A stretch of 64,000 bases of DNA from Leptospiraceae bacterium (GTDB lineage: Bacteria; Spirochaetota; Leptospiria; Leptospirales; Leptospiraceae): the NCBI GenBank assembly GCA_024233865.1, contig JACKPA010000012.1, forward strand, positions 128,001 through 192,000. Direction: 5' to 3'. This document shows positions 1 to 49,314 of the stretch, in pieces. The notes under the pieces are model-generated. The model had not been told where the DNA came from, did no database searches, and saw only the letters and a list, made by a program, of their open reading frames with translations. Position 1 is the stretch's first letter. The number at the start of each line of letters is the position of its first letter. The position numbers and the translations under genes are program-made.

Positions 1-2168
1 TTGCGAATGTCACTTAGTTCGTTTTCTATCTTTTTTAAAGTATTTCCGATAAGTAATCCTTCCGGTTTTTCCAAATGAACAAGTGTATTTGCTGCTACAA
101 AGTTTGTTTCCAAGTTTGGTAAAGGAACAATTCCATAGTTGTCTTTTTTGTCTTTATTTGCTTTTTGATCTATAATCAAAGAAATGAAAAATCGAAGTTT
201 GGAAATCTCAATGGCTATAGGCTGAATATCAACTCCATAAATACAGTTTTTGATTAAAAAGAGCTTTCTTCCATAGTCTTGGTAGTTGTTCTTTTCATTA
301 AAGGCTTCTTCAATTTCTTTTTTAACGTGTTTACGAATATTCACATCCGGAATTTTCTCTGCTTGATTCAATTGCAATCTTTTCCATTCTTCGTTTTTTG
401 GATCGAGTTTGTGAAGAACATAAACAAGCTTATGCAAAATTCCCATAGGAAAAGCACCGGATCCACAAGCAGGGTCTAAAATCTTAATTTTGTGTATGGC
501 TTGGATCAGATTTTGAGCTTCTTCTACTGTGAAAAAATGCTCTTCCGTTGAATGAGAAAGTAAATGACGAAGTTTGGAAACCCCACCCAAACCCTCCCCA
601 GAGGGGCAGGGGGTGAGGTATTCTTTAAAGTAAGCAATCAAACTTTCATCTACCATATAATTCACAATTTCTCGTGGAGTATAAAACGAACCAGTTTGTT
701 TGCGGGCTGTCGTTTTCGTTTCAGGGTTATAAGAAGCCAACAAATTTTCAAAAACCTTGCCTAATAATTCAGGATCAAGAGCGATCTCTTCTTCGAGTGG
801 TGTATTTTCGGTAACGGTGAATTTGTATTGTTTCAAGATACGAATGATTCCTTTCACCTTTTCTTTTTTATGCTTCGTGTCTCCGTATATTTTACTGAAA
901 TCTATTTCCCTCTCTTTACCAAAAAATAAGTCATCCGGAATATTAATTTGTTTTTGGGTTTTTGGATGATCGCTAAAACAATCTATACGAACTTCATTAG
1001 AGCCTTTTCCGGTTTCATCTTTACGTTTATCTAAACATTCAAACAAACCTCCGTTTAAAAAAGGTATTTCCCTAAAAATATTTAGTACGCTTTCGGAATC
1101 TTTGAATTCTTTCTCGTATCTGTATAGGCTATGTACCATATAATCTTTGTCTTTTACCTCAATTCCATTCGTAACACGAAACCTTCTTTCCAAATCCATT
1201 TCAGTATTTAAAGTAGCAAAAAATAGATTTTGTAAAATGGCTTTGTAATAAACAGTGGATGATCCTTCTTTTTCCATAAAATGGTTTAATGTCTTTTTCA
1301 AGAATTCTTCCCTAAACAAATCTTCCGATATAAATTCTCTACCACCTTCCAAACGCTTTTCTTTCAGAAACCAAACAAAAATAAGCCTTGTTAGCATACG
1401 AATTACGCTTAGTGAATTCCGAATGTCTCTATTTTCATGTACATCTTTTGGAAATTCTGCAATATCAATTGCCCAAAAATACCAATTCGATATGTCTTTG
1501 TAAAATCTCTTGTTTAACTCTTTGGTATCTAATACTTTCTGCCAAGCATTGTGAAAATCAACAAAGTTACTCAAACTGTATTTGGCTTTAATACAATCCA
1601 AAGATAAATCATACAGAATTTCAATGTGTCCTCTGTGTGGATTTTCAACTTGAATGTCTTTGATCAAAGTCACTTTTTCCAAAACGTCTTTGCTCACGTC
1701 TAGCTTGTTTGGTCTCCTATCAATAATTGCCAGAGTCAACACACTTCCATAACGAAAGAGTATCATAACCGGAGCCATAAAGAGTTTGTTTACGGCTCTT
1801 GTAATTTGAGATAACTTTGTTTTGGAATAAATATCTCCCTTCAATTGAATACCTATAAATATATAGGACTCATACTCATTGGGATTGTATTTTTTGTTTT
1901 CAAAAAGGGAATGACTTTCCAAAACTTCATCTTTGGTATATTGAAAGAGAATATTTGCTTCTTTCCACTCTCCAAAACAGGCTTTTTCTTCCGGAATATT
2001 CCTTTCTCTGAATAGTTCTTTAAAATCATTTTTTGTATAGTCTGATGTTTTATCGCTTTTGTAACCAAGAGTCTCAAAAAAACTCACCCCCAACCCCTCT
2101 CCAAAGGAGAGGGGAGAAGCGAGGAATTGTTTGATTTGTTCTTTTTTTTCTGTTTCAGTTGTTTTCAT
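1..2168 (-). CDS. Type IIG restriction-modification enzyme, copy 1 (N-terminal nuclease region plus N6-adenine methyltransferase domain). 5' partial-in-window: the start codon is at 2168 and the reading frame stays open to position 1, so the gene continues beyond the window
   Basis: Minus-strand translation from the ATG at 2166-2168 is uninterrupted to the window edge. It contains GSFYTPREIVNYMV (methyltransferase motif X) and ILDPACGSGAFP (motif I). It is the colinear in-frame version of the fragmented ORFs at 5225-7628. It is missing from the ORF track, probably because it has no in-window stop. Confidence 0.7.
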   Translation of the reverse strand, partial: MKTTETEKKEQIKQFLASPLSFGEGLGVSFFETLGYKSDKTSDYTKNDFKELFRERNIPEEKACFGEWKEANILFQYTKDEVLESHSLFENKKYNPNEYESYIFIGIQLKGDIYSKTKLSQITRAVNKLFMAPVMILFRYGSVLTLAIIDRRPNKLDVSKDVLEKVTLIKDIQVENPHRGHIEILYDLSLDCIKAKYSLSNFVDFHNAWQKVLDTKELNKRFYKDISNWYFWAIDIAEFPKDVHENRDIRNSLSVIRMLTRLIFVWFLKEKRLEGGREFISEDLFREEFLKKTLNHFMEKEGSSTVYYKAILQNLFFATLNTEMDLERRFRVTNGIEVKDKDYMVHSLYRYEKEFKDSESVLNIFREIPFLNGGLFECLDKRKDETGKGSNEVRIDCFSDHPKTQKQINIPDDLFFGKEREIDFSKIYGDTKHKKEKVKGIIRILKQYKFTVTENTPLEEEIALDPELLGKVFENLLASYNPETKTTARKQTGSFYTPREIVNYMVDESLIAYFKEYLTPCPSGEGLGGVSKLRHLLSHSTEEHFFTVEEAQNLIQAIHKIKILDPACGSGAFPMGILHKLVYVLHKLDPKNEEWKRLQLNQAEKIPDVNIRKHVKKEIEEAFNEKNNYQDYGRKLFLIKNCIYGVDIQPIAIEISKLRFFISLIIDQKANKDKKDNYGIVPLPNLETNFVAANTLVHLEKPEGLLIGNTLKKIENELSDIR

Positions 2169-2190
2169 ATTTATTTAAATGTCTTATTCT

Positions 2191-2511
2191 CTATGTCTCG
2201 ATAAAAATTTCTTCAGGCACCTGAGCTTGTAGAAATGGCCATATAAGTAGCCGAGCATAAGTTTTAGTGAAAGTAATGATTCTTTTCTCTTGTAACCATC
2301 TTTCATATTGCTCGTTATCCCACAAAACAGAATCCAATAAATGCCTTAATTTGTCTTTTCGGTTCAATTCCTTATTAGAGGAACCAATGATTGAATTTTC
2401 TTCAATAACCAGAATAACGTTATGGATACCTGGACGAAAAGAGAACGAATTTATTTTTAATATAACTGTTCCATCTTCTTGAATTTTAGCTGTTGTCTCT
2501 ATACTTTTCAT
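2191..2511 (-). CDS. hypothetical protein (106 aa)
   Basis: Single ORF. Its 3' end and downstream sequence (gayrtagagaataagacatttaa) are shared with the target-recognition-domain remnant at 3170-3180. Confidence 0.35.
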   Translation of the reverse strand: MKSIETTAKIQEDGTVILKINSFSFRPGIHNVILVIEENSIIGSSNKELNRKDKLRHLLDSVLWDNEQYERWLQEKRIITFTKTYARLLIWPFLQAQVPEEIFIET

Positions 2512-2567
2512 TGTTTACTCCTTAGCATTTACTCTATTTTAATTTCCCTTTTTCTATTTTGGAAATG

Positions 2568-2855
2568 TCAGCCAACAACTCCCTGAACCTGTCGAAGGAC
2601 TTTCTGCTCTTTTTTATTGAGTATTTCTTTATACAATACAACTGGATCCAAATCTACCTTATTGGGCCAACAAACAGTTCCTAATTCTTGATTTACTCTT
2701 ACTAGCTTAAAATAGTTCCATTCTTTTAATGGCTCAAAAACGCCTTCATAAGTGATCATTTTTTCTAAATTGATTACTCCAGTAATACCGTTTTCAAACT
2801 TCAAGTAAAGTAATGATTTTTTTCTTGGTTTTACATATACTATATCTACTAACAT
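2568..2855 (-). CDS. DUF2442-family protein
   Basis: The sequence ...LVDIVYVKPRKK...LKFENGITGVINL... is typical of the DUF2442 partner of DUF4160. The ATG at 2855 lies just downstream of the DUF4160 stop. The longer tracked ORF (to 2948) overlaps the upstream gene. Confidence 0.55.
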   Translation of the reverse strand: MLVDIVYVKPRKKSLLYLKFENGITGVINLEKMITYEGVFEPLKEWNYFKLVRVNQELGTVCWPNKVDLDPVVLYKEILNKKEQKVLRQVQGVVG

Positions 2856-2857
2856 TA

Positions 2858-3118
2858 TTACACCAACGGTTCTATATATTTTAACTCTTTCTTTTGTTTT
2901 GCAAATTCCCAATCTTCTTTTAACTCGTCTTGATGCAAAGATGCCCATTCAACAACAAGCCCTCTTACTCTAGAAGGTAGTTCACCTTCTAGAATTGTCA
3001 ATGTCTCAATAGATACCATAGCTTTATAATTTCCATATCTAACATGAAAATGTGGTGGGTTATGGTCGTTATGAAACATCGCGATAATTATACCTAAAAA
3101 CCTTGATATTTCTGGCAC
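2858..3118 (-). CDS. DUF4160-family protein
   Basis: MFHNDHNPPHFHVRYG is the hallmark of DUF4160. It sits in the classic gene pair with DUF2442. Confidence 0.65.
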   Translation of the reverse strand: MPEISRFLGIIIAMFHNDHNPPHFHVRYGNYKAMVSIETLTILEGELPSRVRGLVVEWASLHQDELKEDWEFAKQKKELKYIEPLV

Positions 3119-3169
3119 TATGATTTTTCTCCTTTTATTCTATCTTAAATGTCTTATTCTCTACATCTT

Positions 3170-3300
3170 GATAATAATTATGGATTGTCGTTTTTTCTAC
3201 AATGCTCATCCTTGGAAAGCTGTCCAATACTGTTAGCATCTCTTCTTCTGTAAGTACATACAGTTGGAAAACTATTGCGTCGATTTTTGGATAACAAATC
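3170..3300 (-). pseudogene. Remnant of the 3' end of a type IIG target-recognition domain
   Basis: About 120 nt match 4015-4135 closely (DAMVFHLYGLTEEEMLTVLDSFPRMSIVEKTTIHNYY...). There is no upstream ORF continuation. Confidence 0.5.
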
Positions 3301-3301
3301 A

Positions 3302-3721
3302 TCATAGGTATTTTATAAATATATTGTTTAATGCCATTCTTTTTTTAGTTCGATAAATATAATAATCAGAATCAATTGTAATGATATTCGTAATTCCATA
3401 AATTTCTGAAATTACAATTAAAGAACCATCTGCAATATCCATTGGTAAATCTTCGTATTTTTTTGCTAATTCGATTAACCTGTTATAATAGTCTTGTTTA
3501 AATTCTAGTATGTTTAGACCACCATCTAGTATAAAACTCATTAAATTAATTTGAGCCTTAGTCGATTTTCTTAATAGATGTCCAACTTCCGTAATTACAA
3601 AATTTGTAGTAAATAATTCACCACTGAAATTTTTTAGAAAATCTATGATATTTTCATGATACTTATCGCTAGCATCAAATAATGCATATAATGGTCCGGA
3701 ATCAATGAGAGTTCTTTTCAT
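3302..3721 (-). CDS. vapC: PIN-domain toxin (VapC-like)
   Basis: The MKRTLIDSGPLYALFD start, acidic PIN residues and 139-aa size fit VapC. The gene is 20-nt overlapped by an upstream small gene. Confidence 0.7.
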   Translation of the reverse strand: MKRTLIDSGPLYALFDASDKYHENIIDFLKNFSGELFTTNFVITEVGHLLRKSTKAQINLMSFILDGGLNILEFKQDYYNRLIELAKKYEDLPMDIADGSLIVISEIYGITNIITIDSDYYIYRTKKRMALNNIFIKYL

Positions 3722-3971
3722 ATAATATGTTCTCTAAGATTAGTTTTCTTTTTTGAGAAATGTCTTTTTTTCCACTTGAATAGACTCCAAAATATTTTTT
3801 TCCTATTTCATAAGGAGTTTTCTTATTCTTTTGATAGTAAGAATCAATATACCCTTTTAATACTATTTTAATAAGTTCTGATTCTGAAATATTTTCCTCT
3901 TTTGAAATTTTGAACAACCCTTCTTCAATTTCTTGAGTTAGATTTATGGTTAGTGCTTTTTGTCTGCTCAT
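3702..3971 (-). CDS. vapB: Ribbon-helix-helix antitoxin (VapB/CopG-like)
   Basis: The 89-aa protein has an N-terminal LTINLTQEIEEGL...SESELIKIVL ribbon-helix-helix pattern and lies immediately upstream of the PIN gene. Confidence 0.55.
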   Translation of the reverse strand: MSRQKALTINLTQEIEEGLFKISKEENISESELIKIVLKGYIDSYYQKNKKTPYEIGKKYFGVYSSGKKDISQKRKLILENILYEKNSH

Positions 3972-3976
3972 TTCAT

Positions 3977-6900
3977 TTATCCTACCTTAAAAGTTTTGTT
4001 TTGTATGCCTCGATAATAATTATGGATTGTCGTTTTTTCTACGATGCTCATTCTCGGAAAACTGTCCAAGACTGTTAGCATCTCTTCTTCTGTAAGTCCA
4101 TACAGATGGAACACCATTGCATCGATCTGTGCTTCCCATTTGGAGACCTCACCCCCGTCCCCTCTCCAATCTGGAGAGGGGGTTTGCTTTGCAACAAGTA
4201 TCTTGTCTACGAGTGCGATCAGGGGTTTTTGTAATCCTGGATTGTCGATTGGTGCTTTGGGAATTGGAAGTTTGTTTACATAATATTTATCAAAGTCCAT
4301 TGTTCGAATAGCACGACAAAAAACAAACCAGTAATAATACCAAGATGCAAATTTTGAATTTAAGATACCAAGGATATATTCTTCTTTAACACCTTTATTT
4401 GTAATAAATGTATTCATTACCGTATCCAATGTTAAAACTCCAATTTTTTATCTAAGCTTGCCATTATAATAATACTATCTTGTACGTGAGCAACTATTCT
4501 TTGAGAAATAATTTTAGTCTTTCTTTTTCTTAGTTCATCAACTTTGGAAATTAAGTCTGCTTTTGGTAATTTTTATCTTATCAATTTCACCATGAATATC
4601 ATATCTACCAATGTTTTTTCCTCGTAAAATATCTTCACCTTTGGTTGTTAATTTGCTTTGGTAAGGCAATCCTCTGCAAGTATTGGAGATTTCACCCAAA
4701 GGAATAAAGCAGTTTTTTAATTTTTTAATATGTTCAAAGATTTGGAATTAACGTAAATCGGTATTATATCATAAGCATTTATAAACTTATTATCTATTTG
4801 TTCATTATGAACTTTAATGGATTCATTCCAATAATCTCCAACGGTCATTTTATAAGATGCTTGTTTATCTTTGATTGTAACTATTATAACTTGTTCCAAA
4901 AGAACATTTTCAAACGCTTTGGTTGTATCAATTACAATACTGAGAACATTATCCTCTGCAATTAGATTACGAGTGTTTTTCCATCCTTCTGAAAATGCTA
5001 TAGACTTTGGAATAATATAACTCAAAATCCCTTTCCGTTTTAATGTTACCAAGCCAAATTCCATAAAAAAGGAAGCAGAATCTTTTTTTGTCTATCATAG
5101 AATTTATAAGATTTTTCGATATTTTTAAGATATTCTTTTAAATCAGCTCCATACGGCGGATTTCCTATCACAACATCAAAGCCACCTTTCCCCAGCCCCC
5201 CGTGAACGGGGGGAGTTACTTGCGTTAGTTACTCCCCAGCTCGGGGGAAGGGGGGGAAATCCCAAACATGTGTTCAGGGTCGAACCAATCCGCAGATTTG
5301 AGTCTATCATAAGGATTCCATTCGGCAATTTTGCTAGCTGAATCTTTAGAAAACTGATTTTTTAGAAGAAATTCAGAAATTTCTTTTGCGTTTCTCTTTA
5401 TCTTTCTCTCGCAGTTCTTTTTTTTCTCTTTATAAGTCCTTGCATCAAAGTGTTGTTTGCGAATGTCACTTAGTTGATTTTCCAACTTCTTTTTTAAAGT
5501 ATCACCAATTAACAAACCTTCCGGTTTTTCCAAATGAACAAGTGTATTTGCTGCTACAAAGTTTGTTTCCAAGTTTGGTAAAGGAACAATTCCATAGTTG
5601 TCTTTTTTGTCTTTATTTGCTTTTTGATCTATAATCAAAGAAATGAAAAATCGAAGTTTGGAAATCTCAATGGCTATAGGCTGAATATCAACTCCATAAA
5701 TACAGTTCTTGATTAAAAATAGCTTTCTACCATAATCTTGGTAGTTGTTCTTTTCATTAAAAGCTTCTTCAATTTCTTTTTTAACGTGTTTACGAATACT
5801 CACATCAGGAATTTTCTCTGCCTGATTCAATTGCAATCTTTTCCATTCTTCATTTTTTGGATCAAGTTTATGAAGAACATAAACAAGCTTATGCAAAATT
5901 CCCATAGGAAAAGCTCCAGATCCACAAGCAGGATCGAGTATCTTGATTTTGTGTATAGCTTGGATCAGATTTTGAACTTCTTCTACTGTGAAAAAATGCT
6001 CTTCCGCTGAATGAGAAAGTAAATGACGAAGTTTGGAAACCCCACCCAAACCCCTCCCAGAGGGGCAGGGGTGAGGTATTCTTTAAAGTAAGCAATCAAA
6101 CTTTCATCTACCATATAATTCACAATTTCTCGTGGAGTATAAAACGAACCAGTTTGTTTGCGGGCTGTCGTTTTCGTTTCAGGGTTATAAGAAGCCAACA
6201 AATTTTCAAAAACCTTGCCTAATAATTCAGGATCAAGAGCGATCTCTTCTTCGAGTGGTGTATTTTCTGTAACGGTGAATTTGTATTGTTTCAAGATACG
6301 AATGATTCCTTTCACCTTTTTTTTTTTATGCTTCGTGTCTCCGTATATTTTACTGAAATCTATTTCCCTCTCTTTACCAAAAAATAAGTCATCCGGAATA
6401 TTAATTTGTTTTTGGGTTTTGGATGATCGCTAAAACAATCTATACGAACTTCATTAGAGCCTTTTCCGGTTTCATCTTTACGTTTATCTAAACATTCAAA
6501 CAAACCTCCGTTTAAAAAAGGTATTTCCCTAAAAATATTTAGTACGCTTTCGGAATCTTTGAATTTTTCTCGTATCTGTATAGGCTATGTACCATATAAT
6601 CTTTGTCTTTTACCTCAATTCCATTCGTAACACGAAACCTTCTTTCCAAATCCATTTCAGTATTTAAAGTAGCAAAAATAGATTTTGTAAAATGGCTTTG
6701 TAATAAACAGTGGATGATCCTTCTTTTTTCCATAAAATGGTTTTAATGTCTTTTTCAAAATTCTTCCCTAAACAAATCTTCCGATATAAATTCTCTACCA
6801 CCTTCCAAACGCTTTTTTTCTTTCAGAAACCAAACAAAATAAGCCTTGTTAGCATACGAATTACGCTTAGTGAATTCTGAATGTCTCTATTTTCATGTAC

Positions 6901-7628
6901 ATCTTTTTGAAATTCTGCAATATCAATTGCCCAAAAATACCAATTCGATATGTCTTTGTAAAATCTCTTGTTTAACTCTCTTTGGTATCTAATACTTTCT
7001 GCCAAGCATTGTGAAAATCAACAAAGTTACTCAAACTGTATTTGGCTTTAATACAATCCAAAGATAAATCATACAGAATTTCAATGTGTCCTCTGTGTGG
7101 ATTTTCAACTTGAATGTCTTTGATCAAAGTCACTTTTTCCAAAACGTCTTTGCTCACGTCTAGCTTGTTTGGTCTCCTATCAATAATTGCCAGAGTCAAC
7201 ACACTTCCATAACGAAAGAGTATCATAACCGGAGCCATAAAGAGTTTGTTTACGGCTCTTGTAATTTGAGATAACTTTGTTTTGGAATAAATATCTCCCT
7301 TCAATTGAATACCTATAAATATATAGGACTCATACTCATTGGGATTGTATTTCTTGTTTTCAAAAAGGGAATGACTTTCCAAAACTTCATCTTTGGTATA
7401 TTGAAAGAGAATATTTGCTTCTTTCCACTCTCCAAAACAGGCTTTTTCTTCCGGAATATTCTTTTCTCTGAATAGTTCTTTAAAATCATTTTTTGTATAA
7501 TCGGGTGTTTTATCGCTTTTGTAACCAAGAGTCTCAAAAAACCTCACCCCCAACCCCTCTCCAAAGGAGAGGGGAGAAGCGAGGAATTGTTTGATTTGCT
7601 CTTTTTTTTCTGTTTCAGTTGTTTTCAT
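3977..7628 (-). pseudogene. Type IIG restriction-modification enzyme, copy 2, disrupted by multiple frameshifts. Fragments: 6972-7628 nuclease N-terminus; 6823-7005, 6539-6733, 5983-6315, 5225-6049 methyltransferase motifs X and I; 5100-5225 NPPY motif IV; 4717-5064; 3977-4429 TaqI_C-like target-recognition domain
   Basis: The fragments are colinear, on one strand and in shifting frames. Together they reconstruct one ~1200-aa protein: GSFYTPREI, DPACGSGAF, GNPPYGADLKEY, IIPKSIAFSEGW, GILNSKFASWYY. Frame breaks coincide with homopolymer or GC-hairpin tracts (e.g. T11 at ~6320, A8 at ~5085, G7 at ~5250). 5457-7628 is about 97% identical to 1-2168. Confidence 0.7.
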
Positions 7629-7878
7629 GTTTTTGTCTCAAAATCAATTTGCATTCTTGTGGCAAATTGTTATACAGTAAATTTAAATTATGTGTTTTGG
7701 AAAATGGGATATTTTGATAGATAAAAATTGACTTAATTGCTTTCTCGGTTGACTGTTGGCAGAGATAACATACATTTCTTGGGAATCGCTCCACCGTTTC
7801 GGAAAGTGCAATTGCACTATTCAAGTCTTCTTCGGCGTATTTAAGCCATGTTTTCCATTCCGGTATATTCTCGTTCAT
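7615..7878 (-). CDS. HEPN-domain protein (toxin-like partner of the nucleotidyltransferase)
   Basis: 87 aa with a ...STEKAIKS...KTHNLNLL... HEPN-like pattern. It overlaps the upstream nucleotidyltransferase gene by 38 nt. Confidence 0.55.
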   Translation of the reverse strand: MNENIPEWKTWLKYAEEDLNSAIALSETVERFPRNVCYLCQQSTEKAIKSIFIYQNIPFSKTHNLNLLYNNLPQECKLILRQKHENN

Positions 7879-8209
7879 ATATTAATTTACCCTCCTTTAA
7901 AGCATGATAATATATAGACCATTTCTTTTGTTTATATTTAGATTCTTCGTCTTGACTGATAACCAAAATATCAGTTGCTATAGGAAAGTTTTCTAATAAC
8001 TTCCGAATCTGAATAGCTAATTTCCTCCTATGCTCAACTTCTTTAAATTCTATTAGAATATCTAAATCACTATTTTCATTTTCCGTACCTTTGGCATAAG
8101 AGCCAAATATAAAGATTTTTTCCGGTTTGAATGTTGGAATGATTCTTTTTATTGTTTCATCCTTAAGATAACTGAATTCATATCTTGTTGTTTTGTTTTC
8201 TGCGATCAT
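7841..8209 (-). CDS. Minimal nucleotidyltransferase (MNT) domain protein
   Basis: IFIFGSYAKGTENENSDLDILIEF is the canonical GS...DxD nucleotidyltransferase motif. Confidence 0.7.
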   Translation of the reverse strand: MIAENKTTRYEFSYLKDETIKRIIPTFKPEKIFIFGSYAKGTENENSDLDILIEFKEVEHRRKLAIQIRKLLENFPIATDILVISQDEESKYKQKKWSIYYHALKEGKLIYEREYTGMENMA

Positions 8210-8249
8210 AGCATTCTCCTTTATTAATTATACCATACTTTTATCAAAA

Positions 8250-11200
8250 TCATTTTATAATCAACCAGGTTACAAGCTCAAAATCGTCTACATCTTTTAT
8301 TTGTTCCTTCTTAGATGGAAGGACAGAGTGCCTGCTTGTTGTTAGGGCTAACAGATTCTTTTTCTGAAAGACTCCTACCGTTTCTTCAATGGACTTCACA
8401 AGTAACTTATTGTAAAAATCCATATTTTTTCCGTTATCGGTTTCTTTATTAAATTGGTTACAAAGTTTTTCAATTGGAGATGTGATCCCAACACACAAAG
8501 CTCTATAGATGTCTAAAATCTGCTTGGCATGAGTAAACTTGTAACGAACATCTCCATTTTCTTGAACATAAACAAGATAAAACGGTTGTAAGGGATTCAC
8601 AGATTCAGAACTTGCAGTTCCTACTTTATGCCTTAAGCAAAATATAACTCCAGGAGATACAGTCTTATTTTGTTTATTTTCTATCTCAACTTCTTTTGGG
8701 ACAAGAGAATACAAACCAAAAGGAGTTTCCCTAAGCATTTTTTCATTGGATTGCAAATAGTTTAGTAAATCCACTCGAAAGTCATCCAAAGTAAACTCAC
8801 TAAAAGAAACGTTATCAGTCAAATCATCCAAATCCAGAATTTCTTTTTGTAGCCTCTTTAGCTGTTCATCTCTATAACTCAATTCATCACTTACCATATT
8901 TTCAATTTCTTCGACATTTAAAATATTTTCCTCATTTGTAGCAGTAATGTCTACCAATGCCATTCTAGCTTCCACTCTATGCTTTAACTTGATGTAATTG
9001 TCCAAATCTTCTGTGGGCCAGAAATTAACCAGGTGAACCGAATTATTTTTACTACCTAAACGATCAATCCTACCAAACCTTTGGATAATACGAACAGGAT
9101 TCCAATGAATATCATAATTTATCAGGTAATCACAGTCTTGGAGGTTTTGTCCTTCAGAAATACAATCTGTTGCAAATAGTACATCAATTTCTTCTATAGG
9201 CATTTTATCCAGTTTTTCACGATGTTTTGAAATGGGCGAAAAATTGATTAAAATTTCTTCATATCTAGAACTACCTAAAGTTGTTTTGTTTACACCACTC
9301 CCCAAAACCAAAGCCGTATGAACACCCAACTCTTTGTAAATATGATCTTTCAATTGCTCATAAATGTATATAGCCGTATCAGCATAAGCAGTAAATACTA
9401 AAACTTTTTTATTCGGCTTTCCATCATTATTTTTATTAGGATTTTTTATTTTTTCTGTTATCAAATCTTTCAATTTATGAAGTTTGGCATCTCTAATGGG
9501 AGTAATAGCTTCTGCCTGGTTATACAGAGAAACCAATTGCTCCCTGTCTTTTTCCAAATCTTGAAGCCATTCGTCTACTTTTAAGTCATCCAATTTATAC
9601 ACCAGTTTTTCTCCAATTTCAAATGCTTGTTTCAAATCTTCGTCTTCCATTTCTTCATTGGTTACTATTTCATCTGTTGCATAGCTTGTATTTTTATTAT
9701 CTCTAAATTTCTGATATTCTCTTATTTTATCTTCCAAGGTATCTATCTTTTTAATTGTTCTGTCCAGAGTGATTTTAAAAGAAAAAATAGAACTTTCTAT
9801 TCGTTTCATAAAGTTGGTTTTCATCATTCCTATCAAAAAATATTCCCTTTGACTTTGTGAAAAATTTTTCACCATTCTGGAAACCTTCGTCTCATAGAGC
9901 TGAATTTTCTCTTCTTTTAGATAAGCAAAAGGGTTAAACAAACTCAGTTTATACTTTGTAATTTCTTCATTTACTTTATCATAAGATACAAAGCGATTAT
10001 TCATATCAATCCTAGTTGTAACGGATATAGGTTTGGCTCTTTTTGGGAATTTACCAATTATTTCTAAACTTTCTTTATAATACCTTTCGATATGCTTTCT
10101 TGACCTTGCTATTGTTAATTGGTCTAGCATCTTAAAAAATGAGGATGGTAGTTTTTCCAAAAGTTCTAATGTTCTCCTTTCGGCATTTTTTTTGTGGTCT
10201 GCCCACATAGTAAAGACTTTTTGAGAAGTTATTAAAGTTTGGTTTATGCTTTGGATTCCAATTGTAAATAGATAAGCAGAATCATCTCCCGCAGTTATAA
10301 AGTAAATTTGATTTCTTAAATCTTGCAAGTGAACATTCACAGGAGTAGCAGACAAAAGTAATACCTTTGTTTTCCTTCCTTTTTGAATCACATCTTCCAT
10401 TAATTTTTCATAACGGCTTTTTTTGATTACATTTCCTTCTTCGTCTTTTTTTCCTTTGGTATTATTCCTAAAATTATGCGATTCGTCAATTACTACCAAA
10501 TCAAAGTTTTCCCAATTCAATGTCCTTAAATCAATATCTCCTTGCTTTCCGGAATCTCTGCCAAGATCGGTATGATTCAAAACCATATAACCAAATTTGT
10601 CTTCCAAAAAAGGATTCAATATAGAATTGTTAGCTGCCTGGTAAACTGTCCAATTGTCCCGTAGCTTTTTAGGACAAAGAACAAGAACACGATCATTTCT
10701 TAATTCGTAGTATTTTATAATTGCCAAGGCTTCAAAAGTTTTTCCCAAACCTACGCTATCGGCGATAATGCAACCGTTGTATTGTTCTATTTTATTAATG
10801 GCTGATTTTACACCATCCTTTTGGAATTCGTATAAGGATTTCCATATAAGAGAATCAAAGAAGTGGCTTTTTTCTTCTAATAACTCTAACTTACTTTTGT
10901 CTTGTAAGTATTTCTGAAAGATGTGATATAGAGTTTTGTAATAAATAAACTCAGGAGAATAATCCAAATACAGTTGCTTAAGATATTCAATTACTTCTTC
11001 TTTTACGTCCTCCACTTCCTCACTATTCCAAAGCTCATTAAACCAGCTAAGCAAATCCAATGTATCACGCTTGGAATCTATAATCAGATTAAGTTCAATA
11101 TTAGGATTAGAGCCAAATCCAATACCTCTATTTGTAAAATTGGAGCTACCCATTATAGCATGGGATAACCCACTTGGTTCATGAATATGATATAGTTTCC

Positions 11201-11582
11201 CATGCAGAAAATTACTTTTTTTAACGGATTTGATTTCTACTTTTTTAGCTATCCATTCCTCACAATCTCTTGCTATTTTACTTTGCTCTAGACGGTTGGA
11301 AAGAGATAAACCATGGTCTTCAATATCAAAAGATTTTTTATCAGTTTTGTCTGGGTCTAATGATTTGGTAAACCTGGGTTCTCCAAACAAAAATCTCAAT
11401 TCGGAAATGCTCTCAAGTCTATCTTTCAATTGATAATAGGCGTAAATTGTAAAAAAGGCGGAAACGAAAGATAATTTGGATTCTTCTACAATCGTTTTTT
11501 CTAAGAATTCCCCTACACTTCCATTTTTTCGATTATCCCTTATGTTAGAAAAACTGATATTTTGCTGGTTAAATTTTTGCAA
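8250..11582 (-). CDS. Phospholipase-D-family nuclease fused to an SNF2-family ATPase/helicase (1110 aa); putative defense protein
   Basis: The N-terminus HGKLYHIHEPSGLSHAIMGSSNFTNRG is an HxK...GSxN PLD motif. The SNF2 N-domain carries CIIADSVGLGKTFEALAII (Walker A) and DLVVIDESHNFRN (DEAH-like). Helicase_C carries LVFTAYADTA...FATDCISEGQNLQDCDYLINYDIHWNPVRIIQRFGRIDRLGS (motifs IV-VI). Confidence 0.8.
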   Translation of the reverse strand: MQKFNQQNISFSNIRDNRKNGSVGEFLEKTIVEESKLSFVSAFFTIYAYYQLKDRLESISELRFLFGEPRFTKSLDPDKTDKKSFDIEDHGLSLSNRLEQSKIARDCEEWIAKKVEIKSVKKSNFLHGKLYHIHEPSGLSHAIMGSSNFTNRGIGFGSNPNIELNLIIDSKRDTLDLLSWFNELWNSEEVEDVKEEVIEYLKQLYLDYSPEFIYYKTLYHIFQKYLQDKSKLELLEEKSHFFDSLIWKSLYEFQKDGVKSAINKIEQYNGCIIADSVGLGKTFEALAIIKYYELRNDRVLVLCPKKLRDNWTVYQAANNSILNPFLEDKFGYMVLNHTDLGRDSGKQGDIDLRTLNWENFDLVVIDESHNFRNNTKGKKDEEGNVIKKSRYEKLMEDVIQKGRKTKVLLLSATPVNVHLQDLRNQIYFITAGDDSAYLFTIGIQSINQTLITSQKVFTMWADHKKNAERRTLELLEKLPSSFFKMLDQLTIARSRKHIERYYKESLEIIGKFPKRAKPISVTTRIDMNNRFVSYDKVNEEITKYKLSLFNPFAYLKEEKIQLYETKVSRMVKNFSQSQREYFLIGMMKTNFMKRIESSIFSFKITLDRTIKKIDTLEDKIREYQKFRDNKNTSYATDEIVTNEEMEDEDLKQAFEIGEKLVYKLDDLKVDEWLQDLEKDREQLVSLYNQAEAITPIRDAKLHKLKDLITEKIKNPNKNNDGKPNKKVLVFTAYADTAIYIYEQLKDHIYKELGVHTALVLGSGVNKTTLGSSRYEEILINFSPISKHREKLDKMPIEEIDVLFATDCISEGQNLQDCDYLINYDIHWNPVRIIQRFGRIDRLGSKNNSVHLVNFWPTEDLDNYIKLKHRVEARMALVDITATNEENILNVEEIENMVSDELSYRDEQLKRLQKEILDLDDLTDNVSFSEFTLDDFRVDLLNYLQSNEKMLRETPFGLYSLVPKEVEIENKQNKTVSPGVIFCLRHKVGTASSESVNPLQPFYLVYVQENGDVRYKFTHAKQILDIYRALCVGITSPIEKLCNQFNKETDNGKNMDFYNKLLVKSIEETVGVFQKKNLLALTTSRHSVLPSKKEQIKDVDDFELVTWLIIK

Positions 11583-47085: not shown

Positions 47086-48015
47086 ATGAAAAAGCTAGGA
47101 CTATTATTTTCAGTTTTAGCGCTGACATTAACGATGTCAGCCACAGGAATTTCGGCAGGAGCATTAAGCGGTCAATGCTACGTTTTGGTCCATGGAATAT
47201 TGGGCTTTGATGATACAAACGGACTTGCAAATGGTCTTGTTAAATATTGGGGTGGATTAGACGGATACCTCAGAGGTCAAGGAGCTAAAGTTGCTACACC
47301 AGGAAGTTCGGCTGCCAATGACTTGGCTACAAGAGCAGGTCAGATTAAGAGCTTTTTGGAAGGAACTTCAAGCAATCCAGGCTGGAGAATTACCAATGGT
47401 TGTGCTAAAGTGCATCTAATTGGTCACTCTCAAGGTGGTCTAGTTTCCCGATATTTGGTAAAAAACCTAAGTTATTCAAGCAAAGTTGCTTCCGTAACTT
47501 CGGTAAATACTCCTCATAAAGGAAGCCCTGTTGCTGATGTTGTTTTGGCTGTGATTCCTAGTTGGTTGCAACCGTTTGTGAATGTTGTTCTTAGCACATT
47601 TGCAACAATAATGTATCGTGATGGTCGTCCGCAAGACGTAGTTGCAATGGGAAAATCGTTAACGGTTTCGTATTGTAACACTTTTAATTCCAGTACACCA
47701 AACGTGTCTGGAATTAGCTATTACTCTTATGGATCAACAATGGCTTGGGCTGACCTAATCCAACATCCACTTATGGGTATTACCTACCCTGCAACATGGG
47801 CAGGTGGATTGGCTTATGGACAAGGTTCTGCAAATGATGGTATTGTTCCTGAATCTTCCCAAAAGTGGGGAACATGGAAAGGTGGACCAAGCACATATTG
47901 GTATGCCACAGGGATAGATCATTTAGAAGCAACCAATTTTGAGTGGTGGGGACAAAACTACTACGATGTTAATGGCTATTACTTAAAAATAGCTAAAAAC
48001 GCTGCAGGTCTGTAG
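47086..48015 (+). CDS. Secreted triacylglycerol lipase (alpha/beta hydrolase, bacterial lipase family I-like), copy A
   Basis: Signal peptide, YVLVHGILGF (oxyanion), IGHSQGG (GxSxG), 309 aa. Confidence 0.7.
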   Translation: MKKLGLLFSVLALTLTMSATGISAGALSGQCYVLVHGILGFDDTNGLANGLVKYWGGLDGYLRGQGAKVATPGSSAANDLATRAGQIKSFLEGTSSNPGWRITNGCAKVHLIGHSQGGLVSRYLVKNLSYSSKVASVTSVNTPHKGSPVADVVLAVIPSWLQPFVNVVLSTFATIMYRDGRPQDVVAMGKSLTVSYCNTFNSSTPNVSGISYYSYGSTMAWADLIQHPLMGITYPATWAGGLAYGQGSANDGIVPESSQKWGTWKGGPSTYWYATGIDHLEATNFEWWGQNYYDVNGYYLKIAKNAAGL

Positions 48016-48037: not shown

Positions 48038-48068
48038 TTAACCGGGAGCGAAAACTCCCGGTTTTGAA
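48038..48068 (+). terminator. Rho-independent terminator
   Basis: ccgggag-cgaaaa-ctcccgg hairpin followed by TTTT. Confidence 0.6.
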
Positions 48069-48331: not shown

Positions 48332-49261
48332 ATGAAAAAGCTAGGACTATTATTTTCAGTTTTAGCGCTGACATTAACGATGTCAGCCACAGGAATTTCG
48401 GCAGGAGCATTAAGCGGTCAATGCTACGTTTTGGTCCATGGAATATTGGGCTTTGATGATACACACGGACTCGCAGGTGGTCTTGTTAAATATTGGGGCG
48501 GATTAGACGGATACCTCAGAGGTCAAGGAGCTAAAGTTGCTACACCAGGAAGTTCGGCTGCCAATGACTTGGCTACTAGAGCAGGTCAGATTAAGAGCTT
48601 TTTGGAAGGAACTTCAAGCAATCCAGGCTGGAGAATTACCAATGGTTGTGCTAAAGTGCATCTAATTGGTCACTCTCAAGGTGGTCTTGTTTCCCGATAT
48701 TTGGTAAAAAACCTAAGTTATTCAAGCAAAGTTGCTTCCGTAACTTCGGTGAATACGCCTCATGTAGGAAGTCCTGTTGCTGATGTTGTTTTGGGTGTTA
48801 TTCCTAGTTGGTTGCAACCATTTGTGAATGTTGTTCTTAGCACATTTGCAACAATAATGTATCGTGATGGTCGTCCGCAAGACGTAGTTGCAATGGGAAA
48901 ATCGTTAACGGTTTCCTATTGTAAAGCTTTTAATAAGAGTGCACCAAATGTATCCGGACTTAAATACTACTCTTACGGATCAAATATGGCTTGGGCTGAC
49001 CTAATCCAACATCCACTTATGGGTCTTACCTACCCTGCAACATGGGCAGGTGGATTGTTTTACGGACAAGGTTCGGCAAATGATGGTATCGTTCCATTGT
49101 CTTCCCAAAAATGGGGAACATGGAAAGGTGGACCAAGCACATATTGGTATGCCACAGGGATAGATCATTTAGAAGCAACCAATTTTGAGTGGTGGGGACA
49201 AAACTACTACGATGTTAATGGCTATTACTTAAAAATAGCTAAAAACGCTGCAGGTCTGTAG
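48332..49261 (+). CDS. Secreted triacylglycerol lipase, copy B (tandem duplicate)
   Basis: 309 aa, >90% identical to copy A, including ~190 bp of upstream sequence. Confidence 0.7.
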   Translation: MKKLGLLFSVLALTLTMSATGISAGALSGQCYVLVHGILGFDDTHGLAGGLVKYWGGLDGYLRGQGAKVATPGSSAANDLATRAGQIKSFLEGTSSNPGWRITNGCAKVHLIGHSQGGLVSRYLVKNLSYSSKVASVTSVNTPHVGSPVADVVLGVIPSWLQPFVNVVLSTFATIMYRDGRPQDVVAMGKSLTVSYCKAFNKSAPNVSGLKYYSYGSNMAWADLIQHPLMGLTYPATWAGGLFYGQGSANDGIVPLSSQKWGTWKGGPSTYWYATGIDHLEATNFEWWGQNYYDVNGYYLKIAKNAAGL

Positions 49262-49282: not shown

Positions 49283-49314
49283 AATTAGCCGGGAGTTAAT
49301 TCTCCCGGTTTTAA
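49283..49314 (+). terminator. Rho-independent terminator
   Basis: ccgggag-ttaatt-ctcccgg hairpin followed by TTTT. Confidence 0.6.

Follow-up and report, generated by a model that had tools for sequence, protein, structure and literature searches.

Three-block GC-rich repeat units translated within an adenine methylase gene of a Leptospiraceae bacterium

The contig JACKPA010000012.1 of a Leptospiraceae metagenome-assembled genome contains, in the stretch of 64,000 nt analyzed here (positions 128,001 to 192,000; hereafter the window, numbered from 1), a perfect GC-rich hairpin within an open reading frame (ORF) for an Eco57I-type restriction-modification methylase. The GC content of the window is 0.342. 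This locus raises the question of what the hairpin is and how it came to be translated. Our analysis revealed that it belongs to a DNA unit with a three-block architecture, which recurs across phyla, whose tail co-varies with its stem, which stands in frame in the methylase, and which is rapidly gained and lost between close homologues. We consider it likely that the units of the window are in-frame members of the family of triplex motifs known as BoxC, PIT and TM_ECO, tolerated in the inter-domain loops of the methylase.

The hairpin and its third block

Window positions 2094-2114 form a perfect 9-bp inverted repeat, CCCCTCTCC-aaa-GGAGAGGGG. Six occurrences of the 9-mer (2094/2106, 4159/4173 and 7554/7566) make up three hairpins in the window, while dinucleotide-preserving shuffles gave an expectation of 0.2 and none of 100 shuffles reached six. 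The hairpin reported in the initial annotation is thus present and far from chance. It lies, as that annotation stated, in frame in a long minus-strand ORF, gene copy 1, which is open from its ATG to the window start (Table 1) and reads ..FLASPLSFGEGLGVSFFETLGY.. around the hairpin. The counterpart at 7554-7574, inside ORF 6972-7628 of a second gene copy, was confirmed as well. The recurrence of the stem at 4159-4181 also stood, with a stem of 10 bp, but its assignment to the target-recognition domain did not, since it is located in a linker just after the TaqI_C-like domain and before the C-terminal helix.

Three independent assemblies from other samples (L204-L206) contain identical sequences, indicating that the hairpin is not an assembly artefact. 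In one of them (L206; GCA_020440835.1, contig JAGRNI010000276.1), the short-read contig terminates within the hairpin (..CCCCTCTCCTTTGGAGAGG), and all three short contigs that cover the region break inside the duplicated methylase copies. The unit thereby flags a sequence where short-read assemblies can break.

The hairpin makes up two thirds of a longer unit of 33 bases, which continues for a further 12 nt, down to position 2082, with a 3-nt spacer and a third block. On the minus strand, the full unit at 2082-2114 (unit A) has the form CCCCTCTCC-N3-GGAGAGGGG-N3-GGGGTGAGG; as a single strand, it is the 33-mer 5'-CCCCTCTCCTTTGGAGAGGGGTTGGGGGTGAGG-3'. The third block, GGGGTGAG(G), starts three bases past the purine arm and is the mirror image of that arm, and this tail is common to the units at 2082-2114 and 4147-4181. 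In unit A of copy 1, Watson-Crick pairing is 9/9, and 8 of the 9 triads fit G.GC or A,T.AT. The probability that a 9-nt third block obeys the triad rule by chance in the host genome is about 2e-6. The hairpin as DNA has a folding energy of -9.9 kcal/mol with a z of -3.4, in a computation that covers the hairpin part only.

A triplex-motif finder, which required stems of at least 7 nt and allowed at most one mismatch per block, found five units in the window. All five are on the minus strand and within a single Eco57I-type methylase gene that is present in two copies (site C, 581-611 and 6041-6071; site A, 2082-2114 and 7542-7574; site B, 4146-4181); the same finder found no triplex unit in the remaining 56 kb of the window. 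The pyrimidine (Y) / purine (R) / mirror rule is obeyed by every unit within the permitted mismatch, and the sense strand carries the hairpin in 5/5. Watson-Crick pairing is complete in units A and A' (9/9 each) and in unit B (10/10) and nearly so in units C and C' (7/8), with loops of 3-5 nt. Of the third-block triads, 8-9 of 9 fit in A, A' and B, with the 3-nt spacers TTG and ACG. Unit C is preceded by CTCACCCCC, a segment complementary to a third block, and site C thus looks like a degenerate form of the inverted pairs described for E. coli.

By analogy with the published motifs, the unit as single-stranded DNA would form a hairpin, with the third block running antiparallel to its purine strand and binding it via G.GC and A/T.AT reverse-Hoogsteen triads.

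A dispersed repeat family conserved as DNA

Viral contigs were scanned with the pattern CCCCTCTCC-N3-6-GGAGAGGGG-NN-GGGGGTGAG, and its 27 specified bases were matched exactly in at least 120 stretches of unrelated contigs with a GC content of 38-69%. Among the matches listed, the flanks are unrelated, the loops are free, and some contigs hold two to four copies. Units are also present in named genomes of several phyla, so that the window unit would belong to a repeat family dispersed across phyla.

The loci of the matches listed yielded 492 strand-wise records of Y/R hairpins, corresponding to about 246 hairpins since palindromic hairpins are recorded on both strands. A mirror tail was present in 222 records, 205 of them with a 3-nt spacer. 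The same loci hold many more pyrimidine-loop-purine hairpins with other stems, and in these the tail varies with the stem as its mirror, an A of the stem being matched by A or T. For example, the purine arm AGGAGGGGA occurs with the tail AGGGG(A/T)GG, GGGGGAAG with GAAGGGGG, GGGGGAGGGG with GGGG(T)GGGGG, and GGGAGAGAGG with GGGAGAGAGGG. For stems outside the search pattern, which comprise more than 20 stem sequences, the tail was the mirror in 35 cases and a direct copy in 2 (p ~1e-8, with cases that are not fully independent). We used this mirror-versus-direct comparison instead of a tail-shuffling control on non-core elements, which discriminated poorly (30% still passed) because many stems resemble each other. 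This relation between stem and tail is the one that governs antiparallel purine-motif triple helices (G.GC, A.AT and T.AT), and the spacers TTA, CCG and YYG match TM_ECO types A and B.

A subfamily in viral contigs L002, L028, L032, L045, L065, L069, L089, L107 and L116 (GC 0.39-0.47) has a conserved upstream flank, ..GAGTGTAGCTnCT, which includes GTAG as in REP tags, with GAC downstream. Contig L116 holds four copies of a longer repeat that contains the triplex unit.

Intrastrand triplex motifs were first described as the BoxC repeats of E. coli and then as PIT elements (Hoyne et al. 2000, cited in Holder et al. 2015, NAR 43:10126, PMC4666352). The TM_ECO consensus is CCCTCNCCC-N3-6-GGGNGAGGG-N3-GGGNGAGGG with the spacer TTA or CCG, and TM_ECO oligonucleotides form a class II purine-motif triplex in vitro, as demonstrated by circular dichroism and nuclear magnetic resonance, with melting temperatures of 70-82 C (PMC4666352). 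Triplex motifs are abundant in enterobacteria and cyanobacteria, have no known promoter, terminator or other function, and mark loci that vary more between strains; in E. coli, TM_ECO is always intergenic (PMC4666352). In about 25 years, neither a function nor a mechanism of spread has been established for BoxC, PIT and related motifs. The present case shows that copies can also be intragenic and translated, in the methylase as well as in terminase, portal and ThiF genes of phages.

The window units share with BoxC, PIT and TM_ECO the order of the blocks (Y block, N3-6 loop, complementary R block, N3 spacer, mirror G-rich block), stems of 9 nt, a G/C-rich composition and the spacer types TTA, CCG and YYG. 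They also share a dispersed multi-copy occurrence with unrelated flanks, occasional inverted pairs and an association with local indels. In contrast, the stem of the window (CCCCTCTCC / GGAGAGGGG / GGGGTGAGG) differs from that of TM_ECO (CCCTCNCCC / GGGNGAGGG / GGGNGAGGG), so that it falls outside the published pattern as a sibling variant. The window units also stand in ORFs rather than between genes, although an intergenic position, as reported for E. coli, does not belong to the structural definition of the motif, and their host is a Leptospiraceae bacterium of 34% GC. Triplex folding is experimental for TM_ECO, whereas it is predicted for the window variant. A unit from Geobacteraceae (L178), located at the same linker of a methylase homologue as one of the window units, fits the TM_ECO pattern exactly. 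On the basis of this fit, together with the shared block order, stem and spacer length and spacer types and the different stem, we file the window unit as a new sequence member of the BoxC/PIT/TM_ECO family.

The initial annotation had likened the hairpin to Rickettsia palindromic elements (RPEs) at miniature scale. RPEs are long imperfect palindromes of about 100-150 bp, known from Rickettsia only, without a mirror third block. The likeness holds insofar as both are DNA repeats that stand in frame in coding genes and give rise, on translation, to surface peptides that are tolerated. It does not extend to the kind of element, since the window unit measures 33-36 nt and has a Y/R/mirror-R design rather than that of a simple palindrome, which sets it apart from RPEs by size and by description. 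REP/BIME elements, which are linked with RAYT transposases, occur outside genes, have a GTAG/CGTC tag and are without a mirror block. The window units resemble them in being short (20-40 bp for REP/BIME), GC-rich, hairpin-forming and dispersed, but they are intragenic, units A and B have no adjacent tag, and no RAYT or transposase-like ORF was found among the scanned window proteins. Mirror repeats of the H-DNA type share the purine-motif triplex with its G.GC and A/T.AT triads; however, they are homopurine-homopyrimidine repeats in a duplex and involve both strands, whereas all three blocks of the window unit are on one strand as a hairpin and a tail.

Translation of the units indicates which level is conserved. 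Unit A of copy 1 encodes PLSFGEGLGVS (residues 19-29). Unit B is read in another frame, as PSPDWRGDGGE, in the linker past the TaqI_C-like domain. Since the same DNA is thus read as PLSFGEGLGV and as PSPDWRGDGGE in two frames, conservation is at the DNA and not at the peptide level. Unit C of copy 1 encodes TPCPSGEGLGGV, in a hypervariable linker ahead of the S-adenosylmethionine-binding motif DPACGSGAF. The unit is stop-free in five of six frames, the only closed one being the sense frame that reads TGA. Translated units of this kind explain the odd peptides of the forms PLSxGEGxGV, PSPxGRGxGGE and LTPxPSPxGRG that occur in predicted proteins. A literature search on the encoded peptides and on in-frame GC-rich palindromic elements found nothing relevant.

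In the viral contigs, 24% of the units lie in long open frames, compared with 55% of random positions, so that units are underrepresented in coding sequence, though still present there. Among the intra-ORF units, 13 have the same orientation as the ORF and 14 the opposite, and several frames are used. Genes with an in-frame unit that were confirmed by Pfam include TerL, Phage_portal, Portal_Mu and ThiF. Units without a preferred orientation, and a pairing rule specific to DNA, speak against a role at the mRNA level. An Rfam scan of positions 1-8300 with E up to 10 returned chance matches of the miRNA type only; hence, no known RNA family matches.

One viral contig (L040) has an ORF of 729 codons, similar to portal-MuF proteins, with three unit-derived peptides, SPPAPLRNGEG, SPPAPSPKRRG and LTPDPSPKRRG, all in the acidic linker region past the portal domain.

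Gain and loss in methylase homologues and the competing explanations

The unit sites of the methylase were compared with the corresponding regions of 120 homologues, whose lengths are hypervariable there. The residues of the window gene at site A occur in none of the 120 homologues and are therefore lineage-specific. This agrees with the possibility of a lineage-specific peptide raised in the initial annotation, but not with that of an insertion that adds length: 36 residues separate the start from the conserved LGY motif, compared with 35-37 in the homologues (net change 0 to +1), so that the element replaces about 11 codons and adds none. At site B, homologues have AAKKKDPNADTSALERQID and the window gene has AKQTPSPDWRGDGGEVSKWEAQID, so that the 12-codon element adds about 6 codons net; in the homologue locus L123, the gain at site B is about 10 codons, nearly the length of a unit. 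At site C, the linker varies greatly in length and shows a clear gain, and about one in ten homologues has PSPLAGEGxGEG-like peptides there. The DNA of four such homologues contains triplex motifs at site C, sometimes as inverted pairs, and two of the four also have a unit at site B.

In another homologue, P0030, the same N-terminal loop has a 21-residue insertion, PVGAHGVRSAGTEIVGATGQSPL, which looks like a translated GC-rich repeat of another kind.

The stems in the homologues differ, being of the AAGGGGGA type, the GGGAGAGGG type or the window's own type. These differences suggest that units were acquired independently at the same permissive linkers and to some extent retained within sub-clades. 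Between L122 and L125, whose proteins are 92% identical, one has a unit pair and the other a remnant only, with indels of 13, 25, 3 and 6 nt. The units thus recur at the same permissive linkers of distant homologues and are gained or lost between proteins this similar. Such natural filled and empty sites could provide a route to insertion boundaries, polarity and mutational consequences.

Based on these results, we favor the view that the window units are family members carried in tolerant parts of the protein. Copies may have landed in, or been patched into, the inter-domain and helix-connecting loops of the methylase. They would persist there for two reasons: the unit offers few stop codons, and its translation yields loop peptides of Pro/Ser/Leu and Gly/Glu/Arg that the protein could tolerate. 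The most likely effect on the gene would be none at the protein level, while the local rate of indels and rearrangements may be increased, as the literature and the pattern of gain and loss suggest.

Several observations weigh against this view. The equal-length replacement at the N-terminal site is unexplained by simple insertion. Three to four sites in one gene of 3.7 kb, with none in the other 56 kb, exceed the clustering of random passengers, and the other five unit-bearing homologue loci likewise have no units in their flanks (up to 10 kb). The perfect unit A in a genome of 34% GC suggests a recent arrival or selection. Finally, the TM_ECO triplex was not detected in vivo by dimethyl sulfate footprinting (PMC4666352). 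Neither the clustering nor the perfect unit A is accounted for by a purely random passenger model, and import together with the gene, or a local process, possibly underlies them.

A bolder claim goes beyond passive carriage. The unit could be a cross-phylum, ORF-compatible mini-element of about 33 nt that actively enters genes or is copied in by templated repair, and that in restriction-modification methylases marks junctions where non-B DNA drives indels, pseudogenisation and domain exchange. If so, the repeat would be a driver of the turnover of defence genes rather than a passenger. We regard this claim as doubtful.

In a different explanation, the units would serve the restriction-modification gene as functional cis-elements, namely structure-prone hotspots at the junctions of the N-terminal domain, methylase core, specificity domain and C-terminal helix that promote recombination between gene copies or homologues (domain shuffling) or ON/OFF switching by frameshift. 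A unit occupies the same linker ahead of motif I in six of six unit-bearing genes, three of the six also have one after the specificity domain, units are clustered at two to four sites per gene, and, as noted, the flanks are free of them. The two copies in the window, although 97.9% identical, differ in that one is frameshifted exactly at unit C and interrupted at a further palindrome (element D, described below), and triplex motifs have a published tie to local genome variability (PMC4666352). This explanation nevertheless appears unlikely, since the methylase family as a whole is independent of the units: of 80 homologue loci sampled without bias from named genomes, only 2 have any unit in the gene, different sequence subfamilies occupy the same site, and the same units stand in frame in unrelated phage structural genes. 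The frameshift at unit C is not special either. Nine other indels of copy 2 lie elsewhere, in A/T runs, so that the frameshift fits a raised indel rate without being specific evidence for it. The two copies show 57 differences, 4 of them in units (about 3% of the sequence), which are too few to judge a concentration there.

An enrichment of triplex motifs across the methylase family was also considered and rejected, as the density in the genes of the unbiased sample (about 0.011 per kb) was like that outside them (0.008 per kb). An earlier impression of enrichment came from three loci picked for their peptides.

The comparison with in-frame palindromic insertion elements in the initial annotation leads to the idea of a true miniature transposable element, inserted in frame like Rickettsia RPEs or miniature inverted-repeat transposable elements. 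In-frame position, dispersal, presence or absence in close homologues and the near-unit-length gain at site B of L123 are what such an element would produce. At 33 nt, however, the unit is far from the 100-150 nt of RPEs; apart from the hairpin itself there was no sign of terminal inverted repeats, units A and B showed no target-site duplication, the scanned window proteins include no transposase-like ORF, and site A shows no net gain in length. TM_ECO, moreover, has no association with mobile elements (Holder et al., PMC4666352). We therefore consider an origin by transposition quite unlikely.

An RNA hairpin that acts in the mRNA on translation or stability, or a protein linker selected for its Pro/Gly content, is close to refuted: the hairpin is on the sense strand in all five window units and the encoded peptides appear loop-like in the model, but units elsewhere are unbiased in orientation, one DNA sequence is translated in more than one frame, Rfam has no match, the third block follows a purine-motif rule that does not form in RNA (PMC4666352), and identity to at least 120 unrelated loci excludes convergent linker selection.

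The host gene, its neighbours and other palindromes in the window

The units and the surrounding genes are listed in Table 1. The methylase has the Pfam domains N6_Mtase, Eco57I and MmeI_Mtase, and copy 2 also has the TaqI_C specificity domain. Its best relatives among 5.8 billion proteins have about 56% identity and come from many phyla; no exact-protein matches were found for two window ORFs. The initial annotation had placed the hairpin in a nuclease region. This label is unsupported, since Pfam showed no nuclease domain in residues 1-460, and the recognisable nuclease (PLD) is part of the neighbouring SNF2-helicase gene at 8250-11582. In the AlphaFold2 model (mean predicted local distance difference test score, pLDDT, 67), residues 18-25 and 516-526 are coil between helices, with pLDDT below 50 at 521-527; both encoded peptides are thus predicted to sit in inter-helix loops. 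A Foldseek comparison of this model with the PDB gave no significant match, the best being BREX PglX with E 0.25.

Table 1. Triplex units, host gene copies and neighbouring genes, in window coordinates.
Feature	Position	Strand	Description
Unit A, gene copy 1	2082..2114	minus	Y arm 2114-2106 CCCCTCTCC; loop 2105-2103 TTT; R arm 2102-2094 GGAGAGGGG; spacer 2093-2091 TTG; third (reverse-Hoogsteen) block 2090-2082 GGGGTGAGT
Unit A', gene copy 2	7542..7574	minus	as copy 1 unit, except third block complete, GGGGTGAGG; 9/9 triads
Unit B, 3' part of gene copy 2	4147..4181	minus	CCCCTCTCC(A)-gat-(T)GGAGAGGGG-acg-GGGGTGAGG; also in assemblies L204 and L205
Unit C, gene copy 1	581..617	minus	CCCTGCCC-ctct-GGGGAGGG-ttt-GGGTGGGG; preceded by CTCACCCCC (617-609)
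Unit C', gene copy 2	6041..6071	minus	relative to copy 1, 1-nt deletion in adjoining C-run and GA-to-AG change; frame shifts there
Element D	5184..5257	minus	74-nt GC-rich composite palindrome between MFGI and GFDVVIGNPPY; homologues have 2-3 codons there
Host gene copy 1	2..2168	minus	Eco57I/MmeI-type N6-adenine methylase; ATG 2168; at least 722 codons; leaves window start
Host gene copy 2	3977..7628	minus	2.17 kb shared with copy 1 at 97.9% identity; frameshifting indels, at least 10, most of them in A/T runs
PLD-nuclease/SNF2 helicase	11582-8250	minus	first in minus-strand reading order
Nucleotidyltransferase/HEPN pair	8209-7615	minus	in minus-strand reading order
RHH/PIN pair	3971-3302	minus	in minus-strand reading order
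DUF4160/DUF2442 pair	3118-2568	minus	in minus-strand reading order
Small ORF	2511-2191	minus	in minus-strand reading order

The many frameshifting indels give copy 2 the look of a pseudogene. It is probably one, although homopolymer sequencing error may also explain its indels. The homology of the two tandem copies begins 4 nt upstream of the ATG. The three toxin-antitoxin-like pairs (RHH/PIN, DUF4160/DUF2442 and nucleotidyltransferase/HEPN) surround the methylase copies, and the copy adjacent to the helicase, copy 2, is the decayed one. The arrangement of a PLD-nuclease/SNF2-helicase gene directly upstream of an Eco57I-type methylase is conserved in homologue loci across phyla (L121-L123). 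In L122 and L123, an ORF6N/Rha-like gene lies between helicase and methylase, and in L121, genes for a reverse transcriptase (RVT_1) and DUF8370/8371 are directly downstream.

Element D contains stop codons and a frame shift, and it interrupts copy 2 just ahead of the NPPY motif. The core of its palindrome is GAGTAAC..GTAACTC. It was rejected as a canonical triplex motif, as relaxed parsing yields only triplex-like ends of 6 nt, and it had no match in the viral contigs. In the homologue P0002, the position of element D is taken by an in-frame RSSPLVGESKGEG peptide.

A scan of the window for G/C-rich perfect hairpins found three further ones, at 5196-5213 (within element D), 48041-48062 and 49289-49308. 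The latter two, ACCGGGAG..CTCCCGGT and CCGGGAG..CTCCCGG, are each followed by T-rich sequence and lie 25-30 nt downstream of paralogous ORFs of 309 residues (47086-48015 and 48332-49261). They are probably the intrinsic terminators of a duplicated gene.

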